A stretch of 64,000 bases of DNA from the NCBI GenBank assembly GCA_963695335.1, contig OY968764.1, forward strand, positions 64,001-128,000. The letters are read 5' to 3'. Below, one piece after another: positions 1,520-4,527 of the stretch. The number at the start of each line of letters is the position of its first letter. Within the stretch, counting starts at the first letter, position 1. Source of the stretch: an uncultured bacterium. Lineage in GTDB: Bacteria > Babelota > Babeliae > Babelales > Vermiphilaceae. Below the pieces are notes generated by a model that did not search any database, was not told the origin of the DNA, and saw only the letters and a program-made list of their open reading frames with translations. The translations under genes were made by a program, and so were the position numbers.

Positions 1520-1900
1520 TTATTCTGTTGTTTCTATAATAAATTGATCATTCTGATGCTTAATAACTACTTCTTTTGATTTTTTCTTACATACTTTTTC
1601 CTCCCAATCCGTAAGTATTTGTACAAACTGCTCTCGTGTCATTTTTAATACAGTTGGTATCTCTTCTTCTGAAAACAAATCTGTTAATAATATATAACCA
1701 TTTTCTTTTTCCAATGCCGTCAAGTTGCTACATGTATATTGTTCATTGTCATTGAGTGCATACTCTATAAAAGAGGATGGATAATAACGAGCATCACAGG
1801 CTAAAAAATTTCCAAGAATATTCATTTCTATATTGGATGCATCATCATAGGCATAACCACTGAAAGGCAACTCATTGCGTATTAATTTAATAAATTCCAT
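1520..1900 (-). CDS. Putative orphan immunity protein (CdiI-like)
   Basis: Small acidic 126-aa ORF starting immediately after the stop of a KITAYPIVKTGI* remnant. Confidence 0.55.
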   Translation of the reverse strand: MEFIKLIRNELPFSGYAYDDASNIEMNILGNFLACDARYYPSSFIEYALNDNEQYTCSNLTALEKENGYILLTDLFSEEEIPTVLKMTREQFVQILTDWEEKVCKKKSKEVVIKHQNDQFIIETTE

Positions 1901-1939
1901 CTATATTCCTGTTTTCACAATTGGATAAGCTGTAATTTT
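1901..1939 (-). pseudogene. Remnant C-terminus of a displaced toxin domain (KITAYPIVKTGI*)
   Basis: 12 codons plus TAG abutting the next ATG; ITAYP is typical of the end of bacterial EndoU-type toxin domains. Confidence 0.55.
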
Positions 1940-1962
1940 AGCTTATCTTTCATGTCTCTTCT

Positions 1963-2298
1963 TTAAAAACTGTATTCTCCACTTTTTATTTTTGGAAAAT
2001 AATATTTTTTTGCTTCTTCGAAATTATCAAAATCTCTCACAAATCGGAATAATTGCTCCGGAAGATTAATATCTTCTTCACAAACTAAAGACATTAAACT
2101 TCTCTGAATTTTATCTAAAACCATAAAATACCAATTAGCTTGTTCCATGGTTTCACACATTTTTATTTGAGAAAATATATACCGAACATTTTGATGCAAT
2201 AAAATTAATCTTTGATTTAAATGTTTTCCAAATTCGTTAATTTGATTTAAATCTTTTTCTATTTCACTTAAAGAAATAAACAAATCTTCCATAATCAA
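1963..2298 (-). CDS. Putative cognate immunity protein
   Basis: Small AT-rich ORF 6 bp downstream of the 740-aa toxin-like gene. Confidence 0.5.
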   Translation of the reverse strand: MIMEDLFISLSEIEKDLNQINEFGKHLNQRLILLHQNVRYIFSQIKMCETMEQANWYFMVLDKIQRSLMSLVCEEDINLPEQLFRFVRDFDNFEEAKKYYFPKIKSGEYSF

Positions 2299-2304
2299 TT
2301 TCCT

Positions 2305-4527
2305 TTATACAAGTTTCTGTTTAGATTTAGATATTGGAGATAAATGAGCTACCACTTTTGTAGATGGATTAAAAATCATTTCCCAATCATTATGTATATA
2401 CTTAAAAAAACCTTCATACCCTCGCGGATCTGGCACAATAGTTGTAGCTCCCCGCAGTACTGACTCTGCCCTAAAGCCAGGACATCTTCTTCCATTATTC
2501 CAAAGTTTATCATAATAAAATTGAGTAAACTTAAATCCATTAACTTCATAATAAGTCTCTTTTAAAGCACCACTAATATTATCTTTAGCTGCTGCAGCAA
2601 TTTTAGCGTTAGCACTTTCCATCTTCTCCATCAAGCAAGCAACTTCTTCAGCGCATCGTACTGGCACACCTTCAGCAGTCACAGCAACTTCTGCAGATTC
2701 TCCGCCTTTACGCATACAACTTACAAAGGTTGGTAAACTTTCTGTGGTAATCGCAGATACCACTTTGGTTACACCATGCAGCAACATCATATCAACAACT
2801 GCTTTTGTACCAACACGCGCAACATCTTCCGTTACATTATTTTTCTGCGCATATTCGTAAATAGCTACTAACGTTTGAGGATCTATCGCGTATTGCCCTA
2901 TCATCTGTTCATATTGCTTTGGATCTGTTTCTAAAAGATCTGTTGCTGCTTCTAAGACACAACTTGCGTACGCAAGTTTACCCAAACAATACCCTGCAAC
3001 AACAAATGATTGCACCACATCTTGTGCCGCTTCAACAGGATGACACACTGCATGCACTGCACCATGTAATGATTCACACACACCATCGCATGCTCCTTTT
3101 GCAATCAGTGGTACATGCGTTGATAATGCTGAATACGTATACTGCGCAGCGTCTTTGGCAAAATCAATTAACGACCAACATGCATCGAGCGTGCGTGATG
3201 CCATCACAACATCACCATTTTTATTTAAACTCAATGATGCATTTGCAAAATCAACAACTGCACCTTGCATATTTCCAACCAAATCACCACTCACAACAGC
3301 ATCAACAACTGTAATTGCTTCATCAACCAAATGGTGTTGTAGATGATTACCGTCAAGCAGTATTCCTTTACGATCTGACGTCAAATGATCTGCAGCAAGA
3401 TAATTCGCCTGTAACGCATTAACTTTGTGAATTTGTTTAACAGATTGTGAGTTAATAATTGTACGTGTAGCAGCATCATAACGCTGTTGCACCGTATCAA
3501 AATGTGATTTTTGTAAAATGTGATTTGTACATTCTGATTGCACAACCGCAGCTTTTTGTTGCGCTTCTTTTTCTTGCCTGTCCTTCGTAGCTTTAGCGGA
3601 GTAGGGAGCAAGGCGCTTTTGCTCCATGTTTGCATTATAAGCATTATGCGCCTGCTCAACTTTTTGCCGCAACGCAGGATAGTGCTCAAAAACTGATGTT
3701 GTATCAACTTTTTTTCCAATCAATCTTCTTGATACAACCGTTGTAACAGATTCATTACCTACAGTACGTGCTTTTTCAATATCACCTTCATGCAATGCTT
3801 TATACACAGTGCCAAGATTACTATGCACCGATGCTGCACTACGCAATTCTTTATCCCTCATACTGCTTTCAACATTATGCCCATCATAATACTTCCAATT
3901 AATATCTGACTTTACTTGCTGCATCAAAGGATTATTTTTCGTACAATCATCATACAAACGCTGGGCAGAACCTGGATAAAATTCTTTCAAAAAATTGGCA
4001 TACGCATGTATCAATGCAATTTGATCTTTACAAGAAAGATTCTCACAAAAACTATTATTTGCACCATTAAACAAAATAGTTTCCATGCGTGTGCAATATG
4101 TTTCCAAACGATCAGTAAATCTTGGTATCAGTAATGCATCTGATGATATAAATTGAGATAAATCATGTAAGCACTGACGCAAACCATGAGAAAAAATATA
4201 TCCCGGTAATGCACAGTAATGCTCAGCAATAGCGCTATAATACATAAGCGGTGTCACAACATTACCAAAGTATTGTTGTAATTGTGGCGATGCTTGATAT
4301 AAAAGAGGATTGCAATAAATTGGAACTTTTGTAGCAGAATAATCAGGAATTGTTATCACGTTTGCTGAAAAGTGCCTGTTATGTGATGATTGTGCATTTT
4401 GATCAACATGCACTTCAACATGCGGCAGATTATTTTTATTATTTGCATCGCATGAAAATTCATAAGAAAATAGAGCGCAGCATTGCATCAATATAGCGCT
4501 TACAAGAAAACTATTTTTTAACTTCAC
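2305..4527 (-). CDS. Secreted polymorphic-toxin-like protein with a distinct C-terminal domain
   Basis: Signal peptide; helical Ala-rich body; VAVTAEG linker; ~85-aa tip (GFKFTQFYYDKLW...WEMIFNPSTKVVAHL); followed by small ORFs. Confidence 0.6.
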   Translation of the reverse strand: MKLKNSFLVSAILMQCCALFSYEFSCDANNKNNLPHVEVHVDQNAQSSHNRHFSANVITIPDYSATKVPIYCNPLLYQASPQLQQYFGNVVTPLMYYSAIAEHYCALPGYIFSHGLRQCLHDLSQFISSDALLIPRFTDRLETYCTRMETILFNGANNSFCENLSCKDQIALIHAYANFLKEFYPGSAQRLYDDCTKNNPLMQQVKSDINWKYYDGHNVESSMRDKELRSAASVHSNLGTVYKALHEGDIEKARTVGNESVTTVVSRRLIGKKVDTTSVFEHYPALRQKVEQAHNAYNANMEQKRLAPYSAKATKDRQEKEAQQKAAVVQSECTNHILQKSHFDTVQQRYDAATRTIINSQSVKQIHKVNALQANYLAADHLTSDRKGILLDGNHLQHHLVDEAITVVDAVVSGDLVGNMQGAVVDFANASLSLNKNGDVVMASRTLDACWSLIDFAKDAAQYTYSALSTHVPLIAKGACDGVCESLHGAVHAVCHPVEAAQDVVQSFVVAGYCLGKLAYASCVLEAATDLLETDPKQYEQMIGQYAIDPQTLVAIYEYAQKNNVTEDVARVGTKAVVDMMLLHGVTKVVSAITTESLPTFVSCMRKGGESAEVAVTAEGVPVRCAEEVACLMEKMESANAKIAAAAKDNISGALKETYYEVNGFKFTQFYYDKLWNNGRRCPGFRAESVLRGATTIVPDPRGYEGFFKYIHNDWEMIFNPSTKVVAHLSPISKSKQKLV
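3576..3608. repeat. Short palindromic repeat embedded in frame in a CDS (encodes PYSAKATKD)
   Basis: gcctgtccttcgtagctttagcggagtaggg resembles the intergenic copy gcctgccctccgaagctttatgcgtaggaggg at ~52064. Confidence 0.6.

Follow-up and report, generated by a model that had tools for sequence, protein, structure and literature searches.

The window, i.e., the whole stretch of 64,000 nucleotides that we analysed, harbours three consecutive minus-strand ORFs coding for proteins of 740, 111 and 126 residues, at the coordinates given in the original prediction (Table 1). They are separated by gaps of 6 and 62 bp, which are the sole basis for regarding them as one operon. Promoter-like sites are found at chance level at the locus (25, with 25.3 expected), and likewise for a terminator scan. 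No RNA run figures among the sequencing runs listed as matching the locus, and the DNA runs match with small shares only. A contig of run X1, which is possibly related to the source sample, covers positions 1731-1986 with zero differences. The gene upstream of the 740-residue ORF codes for an AAA ATPase, and neighbouring genes in the window code for WD40 proteins with signal peptides, a kind typical of host effectors.

The general features initially reported for the three proteins hold. The 740-residue protein has a hydrophobic, signal-peptide-like start (aa 1-20, mean Kyte-Doolittle value 1.39), a body modelled as nearly all helix up to aa 650 and a C-terminal tip of distinct, basic composition (13 Lys and Arg versus 8 Asp and Glu), and the two small proteins are acidic, with net charges of -5 and -11. 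The GC content is highest in the carrier part (0.385), lower in the tip (0.33) and lowest in the 111-residue ORF (0.24). No Pfam or NCBIfam family matched the 740-residue protein, including the Rhs, FHA, LXG and MafB domains that the original prediction did not recognise in its N-terminus. The VAVTAEG sequence is present at aa 614-620 but corresponds to the end of a conserved domain preceding the tip (hereafter called the pre-toxin domain) rather than to a free linker; alignments of homologs place the swap point around aa 644-650, some 25-30 residues further on.

Table 1. Features of the locus (window positions).
Feature	Position	Strand	Evidence
Full-length polymorphic toxin, 740 aa	2305..4527	(-)	GTG start; 31 homologs with a common carrier and differing tips
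Probable Sec signal peptide, aa 1-~21	4465..4527	(-)	Basic start and hydrophobic stretch, likewise in homologs; cleavage site inferred
Sub-family-specific N-terminal region, aa ~22-382, mostly helical	3382..4464	(-)	Bin identities, clustering, model
Conserved pre-toxin domain, aa 383-637 (~255 aa)	2617..3381	(-)	Alignment A1; model pLDDT 82
Toxin tip, aa 651-740, predicted BECR-fold RNase of CdiA-CT NC101 type	2305..2577	(-)	phmmer, Foldseek
Predicted cognate immunity protein, 111 aa, CdiI-NC101 homolog	1963..2298	(-)	Family profile and gene order
Scar of 13 codons, corresponding to the 3' end of an EndoU tip that was displaced	1901..1942	(-)	Translation and DNA alignment
Putative orphan immunity protein, 126 aa, EndoU-tip partner (inferred from gene context)	1520..1900	(-)	

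Toxin tip, immunity genes and scar

Judging from its sequence, the tip is not novel, being a homolog of the EF-Tu-dependent tRNase CdiA-CT of E. coli NC101. It matches 5I4Q_A over an ungapped phmmer alignment (E 3.3e-18) and 5I4Q in Foldseek searches (E 1.2e-4, 40% identity). Residues Y672, W676, R680, D700, E716 and H728 correspond to Y192, W196, R200, D220, E236 and H248 of NC101 and are invariant in 10/10 aligned tips. According to the residue roles described in PMC5737660, including catalysis and EF-Tu binding, they comprise the BECR residues Arg200, His248 and Glu236 (R680, H728 and E716 in the tip) and the predicted counterparts of the EF-Tu-binding Tyr192 and Trp196 (Y672 and W676). Q198 and Q250 of NC101, both dispensable in that study, are replaced by N678 and S730. 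In the EF-Tu of this genome, the spacing of E260, F262 and R263 is kept and D267 is replaced by N, by comparison with PMC5737660. The tip very probably has tRNase activity.

The resemblance to the CdiA-CT/CdiI pair of NC101 (PDB 5I4Q/5I4R; PMC5737660) extends from the toxin domain, which is ~40% identical, to the immunity protein, which is homologous, and to the gene order. In contrast, the carrier is unrelated to NC101 CdiA and has no haemagglutinin repeats, VENN motif or CdiB match. The tip was found in 17 genomes. As anticipated by the original prediction, Rhs carriers and haemagglutinin (CdiA-type) carriers from other phyla also bear this tip: among 18 tip-bearing ORFs scanned, four harbour Rhs families, two haemagglutinin/DUF637 and one DUF6443 alone, and a separate Pfam scan revealed one association with PT-TG.

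The homology of the 111-residue protein with CdiI was revealed by its family profile, whose top match is 5I4Q_B (E 6.3e-6); searches of the PDB with the single sequence yielded only coiled-coil chance matches. Genes of this family directly follow the tip in 16/16 other genomes and at 25 of 26 named loci. The family is present in 31 genomes, compared with 17 for the tip, and immunity genes thus also exist toxin-free.

Further downstream, the layout initially described as toxin, immunity, orphan tip and orphan immunity stands for its toxin and two immunity genes, but the orphan tip is only a scar. This putative toxin-tip remnant consists of just 13 codons and a stop without a start, and could therefore not serve as an orphan module. 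In the genome, with 2.73 million six-frame codons, its motif is found twice. Its DNA aligns with the junction between an EndoU tip (G000:C1:512076-512708), identified by Pfam, and its immunity gene at G000:C1:512 kb, and C-termini near-identical to it are found in P0010, P0026 and P0030. The 126-residue protein is 67% identical to the product of another gene of this genome, which directly follows an EndoU tip. Its family, without Pfam or PDB matches, is present in 43/261 genomes, with up to 12 matches per genome, and an EndoU-type end lies immediately upstream in 11 of the 29 copies checked. At the sequence level, these traces show that a cassette of tip and immunity gene (~2565-1963) displaced an EndoU tip, leaving behind the scar and the old immunity gene. 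The 126-residue ORF is presumably this orphaned immunity gene; such orphan genes could be mere leftovers.

The carrier family and the exchange of its tips

The original prediction of homologs with a conserved N-terminal part and swapped tips was borne out in 31 close homologs and in the wider family. In the close homologs, residues 1 to ~640 are kept and the tip is exchanged, with identities per bin of 0.54-0.80 over aa 381-640 versus 0.11-0.24 over aa 641-740. In the N-terminal region, identities between close homologs range from 0.21 to 0.63 per 20-residue bin. Across the family this region varies in sequence and in length (104-1086 residues), with 21 N-part clusters among 123 members. A crude heuristic detected signal peptides in 100/123 family members, compared with 4/123 for an internal control; it was also positive for 504/806 long ORFs of the genome and is therefore unspecific. 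In the available text of PMC6561590, signal peptides are reported for 44% of the proteins of C. destructans.

The 136 family tips fall into 34 tip groups, and tip type is scrambled over the carrier tree: with 30 rows and 7 tip labels, 16 changes are needed (minimum 6, shuffled mean 17.6). Grouping the three NC101-tip carriers as a single clade was rejected (p-AU 1.4e-7). At the orthologous locus in a genome of the same genus (L065), the flanks and carrier are alike and the tip and small genes are different, and L086 contains a series of stub, tip and immunity genes. Nuclease-type Pfam families were identified at the C-terminal end of 36/137 family representatives (EndoU, 14; Ntox17, 8; Ntox21, 7; Ntox35, 3; DUF4258, 2; ribonuclease, 1; colicin E3-type, 1) and are absent from the tips of the other 101. 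A small ORF abuts the carrier gene at 28/30 loci, and 26 of these ORFs are acidic; the remaining two loci are tipless.

The pre-toxin domain is the unannotated, family-defining part of the protein, and the novelty of the locus resides there. In the model, it forms a helical bundle with a long Gly/His-Pro hairpin, made up of helices 440-495 and 497-534, and a T-x-E-G motif at its end. The hairpin is only moderately hydrophobic (median of 1.35 for the best 19-residue window, with values of at least 1.6 in 19/150 cases), and it is therefore not a clear membrane segment. The domain has no Pfam, NCBIfam or PDB match, and no Pfam family matched more than 1/30 members. Foldseek yielded nothing at E<=0.001, and the best match of a fold search (Z 7.7) was to generic helical bundles, which does not demonstrate that the modelled carrier has a new fold.

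We found the pre-toxin domain in 127/261 genomes of the phylum, with Babelota judged by homolog names, and no match in the other 134. The family comprises 1,139 clusters and is represented in 17 of the 21 families of the phylum. Sampling of two other phyla revealed no occurrence in 181 genomes each (0/362), and the domain is thus lineage-restricted within Babelota and the two phyla sampled. A word-based search with alignment A1 retrieved the close clade only, and a single-query search for the carrier in plasmids or phages yielded none. This genome encodes at least four intact carriers. AAA ATPase genes neighbour 4/22 carrier loci, and we rejected the AAA ATPase as a dedicated partner on account of this low proportion; the surroundings of the carriers revealed no other conserved gene for a partner or for processing. 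No paper describing the family was found in the open literature searched, and the carrier family is apparently undescribed.

Relation to known polymorphic toxins

Tip exchange, the CdiI homology and the absence of a known carrier family all support the initial proposal of a polymorphic toxin-immunity locus on an unrecognised carrier, an assignment that, going by sequence comparisons, is almost certainly correct. The claim of novelty applies to the carrier family but not to the tip and first immunity gene, which are homologous to a CDI pair already solved structurally and characterised. The carrier has neither RHS repeats nor PAAR, which are features of Rhs and T6SS effectors. The TPS domain, haemagglutinin repeats and PT-VENN of CDI carriers are also absent, all detectable in true CdiA-like ORFs. 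No LXG or WXG100 family was found in the carrier, which has a hydrophobic N-terminus, or in the members scanned. MafB-N (PF06255) is likewise absent from both, and the MafB model does match in 3/301 other genomes.

The locus fits a known class, that of polymorphic toxins combining a signal peptide with a lineage-specific domain, described in the available text of PMC3482391 with MAFB-N, Microscilla-N and APD1/2 as examples. With this class and MafB of Neisseria, it shares a probable signal peptide, a lineage-restricted conserved domain, a C-terminal nuclease of variable type, immunity genes located downstream, the tandem arrangement of loci and, presumably, Sec/T2SS as the default route. It differs from MafB by the lack of sequence similarity. 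We saw no mafA-like upstream lipoprotein gene here, and the 10 loci listed have no upstream gene in common. Furthermore, the conserved domain is located just before the tip, behind an N-terminal part of 104-1086 residues, whereas that of MafB follows the signal peptide directly, and its distribution is phylum-wide (17/21 families) rather than genus-wide. "Ca. Bodocaedibacter vickermanii", an intracellular bacterium of a protist, also has toxin-immunity loci with unrecognised carriers, as judged from layout rather than carrier sequence and from the available part of PMC8163844; that source reports a T6SS as well as orphan modules that display N-terminal homology, whereas no Hcp match and only a scar were found here.

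Proposed action and alternative readings

We propose that these proteins form a phylum-wide, Sec-exported polymorphic toxin family of Babelota (Dependentiae/TM6), which is likely used on other bacteria, most plausibly relatives in the same protist cell or vacuole. Taken by itself, a bacterial target is rather more probable still. The unfolded protein would pass Sec by means of its signal peptide, and then leave the cell through the genome-encoded type II secretion system (two GspD, two GspE-type ATPases, GspG and GspC) or in outer-membrane vesicles. The genome, which is 94% complete, has no Hcp, detected in the positive control, and no CdiB/ShlB match, the control genomes being likewise without match. 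The variable N-terminal region might bind the target, and the conserved helical hairpin might take the tip over its inner membrane, a role that we consider tentative, before release of the tip near the T-x-E-G motif. Going by the CHARACTERISED homolog, the tip would bind domain 2 of EF-Tu and cut tRNA 3' ends, and the 111-residue protein would block its active site. Several symbiont groups, Babelota included, co-occur in single amoebae according to the available text of PMC12644861; in the parts of the literature covered, the frequency of two Babelota strains in one host cell is not documented.

Alternatively, the proteins might be host-directed effectors, i.e., bacterial-type translation nucleases sent to the protist and especially to its mitochondrion, freeing nucleotides or disabling the organelle, with immunity protecting only the producer. 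Mitochondria possess an EF-Tu, and the WD40 neighbours would suit such a function. C. destructans replicates wrapped in a host mitochondrion and releases vesicles, and the EndoU genes that it carries were interpreted as coding for host-degrading enzymes; the same source, in its available text, reports that the mitochondrial matrix is not invaded (PMC6561590). Serial tip replacement and orphan immunity genes, both seen here, are not required in effectors aimed at the host, and in free-living bacteria the same tip-immunity pair is associated with carriers of the Rhs and FHA types. Since the homolog of the tip depends on a bacterial EF-Tu and the toxin genes are accompanied by immunity genes, a host target is the weaker option, and we deem it unlikely.

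Less probable yet is an addiction or superinfection-exclusion module that would act upon lysis or through self-intoxication, in the manner of toxin-antitoxin systems, even though host addiction via polymorphic toxin systems was proposed for the Bodo endosymbiont (available text of PMC8163844) and no contact-dependent machine was found, the controls being silent for ShlB/CdiB. The long exported N-termini of full-length carriers are needless for an intracellular addiction module, and the diversity of tip groups fits an arms race among kin. The cultured relative C. destructans is described as lytic in the consulted portion of PMC6561590, which leaves little room for host addiction.

Finally, the carrier is very unlikely to be a highly diverged member of an established family of pre-toxin or entry domains (MafB, CdiA-CT entry domain or PT-TG-like): the ESM Atlas listing of 'MafB class 3' (0.87, with 99/256 features shared) is below the 0.9 lead line and was not confirmed by HHalign (probability of 0.1% between A1 and the full MafB domain, with a single-sequence template) or by an HMM search of four MafB loci, the A1 profile matches the N-terminal part of the CdiA tRNase toxin 7vmc_B only in the Gly-rich hairpin region and not significantly (E 0.025, a weak lead), and neither the Pfam scans of members nor the fold searches point to such a family.

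Returning to toxins used on bacteria, a bolder and improbable extension would make the pre-toxin domain a new self-sufficient membrane-crossing module, firing nucleases at everything in the shared protist cell that translates in the bacterial manner, rival parasites and the enveloping host mitochondrion alike. If true, it would imply a phylum-wide arsenal of translation-attacking nucleases, with tips of dozens of types that mostly belong to no named family. It would further imply that bacteriocin-like warfare takes place within the eukaryotic cytoplasm, conducted by a lineage in which such systems were believed to be lacking, and that a single weapon serves to exclude superinfecting rivals and to take over the organelle.

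Babelota live as obligate intracellular parasites of protists; they are widespread and have genomes of 1-1.5 Mb. The word toxin does not occur in the comparative and isolate papers PMC4776705, PMC6561590 and PMC12172432, and a 2025 survey, in its available text, describes the phylum as devoid of toxin-antitoxin systems. Approximately half of Babelota genomes in fact retain toxin-immunity loci, which implies regular encounters of strains inside hosts. The family supplies an unannotated delivery domain and many tips without a named family, each beside a candidate immunity gene, and the exchange of its tips across the phylum points to hidden warfare among parasites that share a host cell.

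Tip and immunity protein

The three ORFs of the original prediction are real and lie on the minus strand as it had placed them (see table); searches of Pfam (above cut-off) and NCBIfam returned nothing for any of them. In a Foldseek search, the full-length model gave three matches at E<=0.001, all to CdiA-CT of E. coli NC101, to which phmmer also aligned the tip without gaps (E 3.3e-18). CdiA-CT NC101 is a BECR-fold RNase reported to bind domain 2 of EF-Tu and to strip tRNA 3' ends (PMC5737660). Taking its chain to end at residue 255, the residues named in that paper map to Y672, W676, R680, D700, E716 and H728 of the tip, and these six are unchanged in 10 of 10 aligned tips. 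Q198 and Q250 are replaced by N and S, and their loss was reported to be without effect on CdiA-CT NC101 (PMC5737660). The source genome's own EF-Tu keeps E, F and R spaced as E260, F262 and R263 are, and carries N in place of D267.

Sixteen further genomes of the phylum have the same tip, and in all 16 a member of the 111-aa protein family is encoded directly behind it. A 17-row profile of this family gave CdiI-NC101 as its top PDB match (E 6.3e-6). In named genomes we collected 28 tip loci, dropped two partial matches and found an immunity homologue downstream of the tip in 25 of the 26 analysed. The tip was predicted to occur on Rhs and CdiA proteins, and it does: among the 18 tip-bearing ORFs scanned, four harbour Rhs families, two haemagglutinin/DUF637 and one DUF6443 alone. 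The toxin tip and the first immunity protein are of known types. In some Babelota the tip sits on signal-peptide proteins to which profile A1 gives no match (L136); together with that of L074, these are further unrecognised carriers.

Features of the toxin locus, its surroundings and related loci
Position	Feature	Remarks
Window 2-547; G000:C1:63413-63979	Pair of small paralogous proteins in tandem	33% identical; hydrophobic N-termini; no Pfam match
Window 528-1502; 4572-5942	Paralogous AAA proteins flanking the toxin locus	44% identical; signal-like N-termini; Walker A degenerate in the downstream one
Window 1520-1900	126-aa ORF	Second small gene
Window 1963-2298	111-aa ORF	Immunity
Window 2305-4527	740-aa protein	Pre-toxin domain aa 383-637; tip aa 651-740
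Window 6165-11802	Three tandem WD40 proteins	Signal-like N-termini; N- and C-terminal domains in common; probable host target
L068:2437-9025 (G000:C1:510-517 kb)	Toxin locus broken by two insertion sequences	EndoU tip; paralogue of the 126-aa gene; two AAA genes upstream
L070:874-8434 (G000:C1:807870-815433)	Colicin E3-type-tipped carrier and 266-aa neighbour	Within a tolQ-tolR-tolA/tonB ... tolB cluster; one locus
L164:1062-4659 (G000:C1:786-790 kb)	RNase A-type-tipped carrier	Weak CdiI_2 match behind it; two small flanking ORFs with an EndoU-like motif at the end
L136:4252-5649; L074:238-1746	Signal-peptide proteins outside A1	Same tRNase tip and immunity gene

Exchange of tips and a displaced EndoU end

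A whole-protein search yielded 31 homologues: EndoU (PF14436) is present in 16 of them, the CdiA RNase A-type domain (PF18431) in 3. Mean identity per 20-aa bin is 0.54-0.80 at aa 381-640 and 0.11-0.24 beyond, in agreement with the predicted swapping of tips on a retained N-part. On a carrier-only tree of 30 rows (four fragmentary homologues excluded, two added from a further search), the seven tip labels, assigned by motif, are scattered and need 16 changes (minimum 6, shuffled mean 17.6). The tips of the three carriers with the window's tip type are 94-96% identical, yet these carriers sit on three branches, and their single grouping was rejected (p-AU 1.4e-7).

The AAA-carrier-...-immunity-AAA frame recurs at the orthologous locus L065, whose DNA homology with the window stops at 2596 and restarts at 1842, with another tip and three other small genes in between. 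L071, whose carrier is only distantly related, also has the stretch comprising the tip and the 111-aa gene (window 2565-1973), 83% identical. These break points and the common stretch indicate that the unit that moves is the tip plus its immunity gene. With tip exchange and a CdiI-NC101 homologue behind the tip, the sequence evidence supports the original reading of a real polymorphic toxin-immunity locus.

The toxin-tip remnant proposed as an orphan module was reinterpreted. Between the two small ORFs, a 62-bp gap contains 13 codons closed by a stop, to which no upstream sequence is joined in frame; they are the scar of a displaced EndoU end and no reserve module. At the DNA level, the 13 codons align with the junction at G000:C1:512 kb where a Pfam EndoU tip ends and the next gene starts, and they resemble the C-terminal ends of the EndoU-tipped homologues P0010, P0026 and P0030. 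The 126-aa family is present in 43 of 261 genomes, frequently as arrays, and in 11 of 29 copies the gene is immediately preceded by an EndoU-type end, by a pattern that does not catch the window's own copy. A comparable scar follows a stop in locus L120. The simplest history is that the locus formerly ended in EndoU and the 126-aa gene, and that an NC101-type cassette displaced the EndoU tip, orphaning the 126-aa gene.

A carrier family across the phylum

The phylum-wide common part of the carrier is the pre-toxin domain (alignment A1, 30 rows, mean column identity 21%). At E<=1e-5, A1 matches 127 of the 261 phylum genomes, ~30 of them by construction because its 30 rows came from these genomes; the matches cover 17 of 21 families, with up to 11 per genome. 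Against 1.84 billion representatives, we obtained 1,139 clusters at E<=0.001 (762 at 1e-10), with taxa known for the best 150 of the 1,139. The source genome is probably of this lineage, judging by its homologues: those of the carrier, like several tip-bearing loci, go under the names Ca. Babeliales or Ca. Dependentiae. Carrier-bearing L133 and L146 have the depositor title 'uncultured Pseudomonadota', labels being as deposited. The domain was found in 0 of 181 genomes of G262's phylum, 0 of 181 of G264's phylum and none of four tip-bearing genomes of other groups.

We scanned 137 representatives (145 new identifiers less 8 short): 36 have a nuclease-type family at the C-terminal end, one has an N-terminal Hint domain, and none harbours MafB, LXG, Rhs, haemagglutinin, VENN or PAAR. 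Assignment of the carrier to MafB, CdiA, Rhs or LXG was rejected, those families being absent from this set. In P0154, a Hint domain immediately follows the signal peptide, and P0050 (1,323 aa) has two copies of the pre-toxin domain. N-parts range from 104 to 1,086 aa and form 21 groups, and 136 tips form 34 groups. A small ORF abuts the carrier gene at 28 of 30 loci, and carrier-immunity pairs occur in tandem, up to four per array (L060-L064, L066).

The model of the pre-toxin domain (pLDDT 82) consists of a small bundle plus a long hairpin that turns at the invariant Pro497 and has one Gly-rich arm; in fold searches with it no solved fold stands out. The source genome (single contig, 1.37 Mb, GC 35.7%, 94% complete) has four intact carrier matches; three of their tips are of NC101, colicin E3 and RNase A type, and the fourth is unnamed. 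Tol proteins, encoded around the colicin E3-type-tipped carrier, import colicins. The carrier pieces at L068 gave no A1 match and may therefore represent a second carrier type.

Export, target and related systems

We infer from its N-terminus that the carrier is exported by Sec. A signal-peptide heuristic was positive for 100 of 123 carriers versus 4 of 123 internal windows; it was also positive for 504 of the 806 long ORFs in the source genome. That genome encodes two secretins, GspC, GspE-type ATPases, GspG and two Omp85 proteins, and Hcp was not found in it. The T2SS is described as core to the phylum (PMC4776705), and C. destructans as shedding vesicles in the food vacuole (PMC6561590). 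Based on these elements, we propose that the carrier would pass through Sec and be released by the T2SS or in vesicles. The variable N-part would then bind the target, entry would occur through the hairpin and the tip would cut tRNA on EF-Tu. Entry is the weakest proposed step, since the hydrophobicity of the hairpin is only moderate. The EF-Tu dependence of the homologue, the use of the module by Rhs and CdiA carriers too, and the occurrence of immunity genes without toxins all favour a bacterial target; a mitochondrial target is possible.

The mode of working would be like that of MafB, and the carrier falls among the signal-peptide polymorphic toxins that bear a lineage-specific domain, a class described by Zhang et al., who expected its wider spread (PMC3482391). 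We found one prior report of unrecognised carriers in a protist endosymbiont (PMC8163844), likened to the Babelota carrier by description. Babelota have been reported to be devoid of toxin-antitoxin systems (PMC12644861), and one family member is labelled 'polymorphic toxin-type HINT domain-containing protein' by NCBI. Supplements and subscription papers, which may list such proteins, aside, we found no literature on the carrier family or linking Babeliales, TM6 or Dependentiae to polymorphic toxins. The carrier apparently represents a family that has not been described before and that spans a phylum of obligate intracellular parasites.
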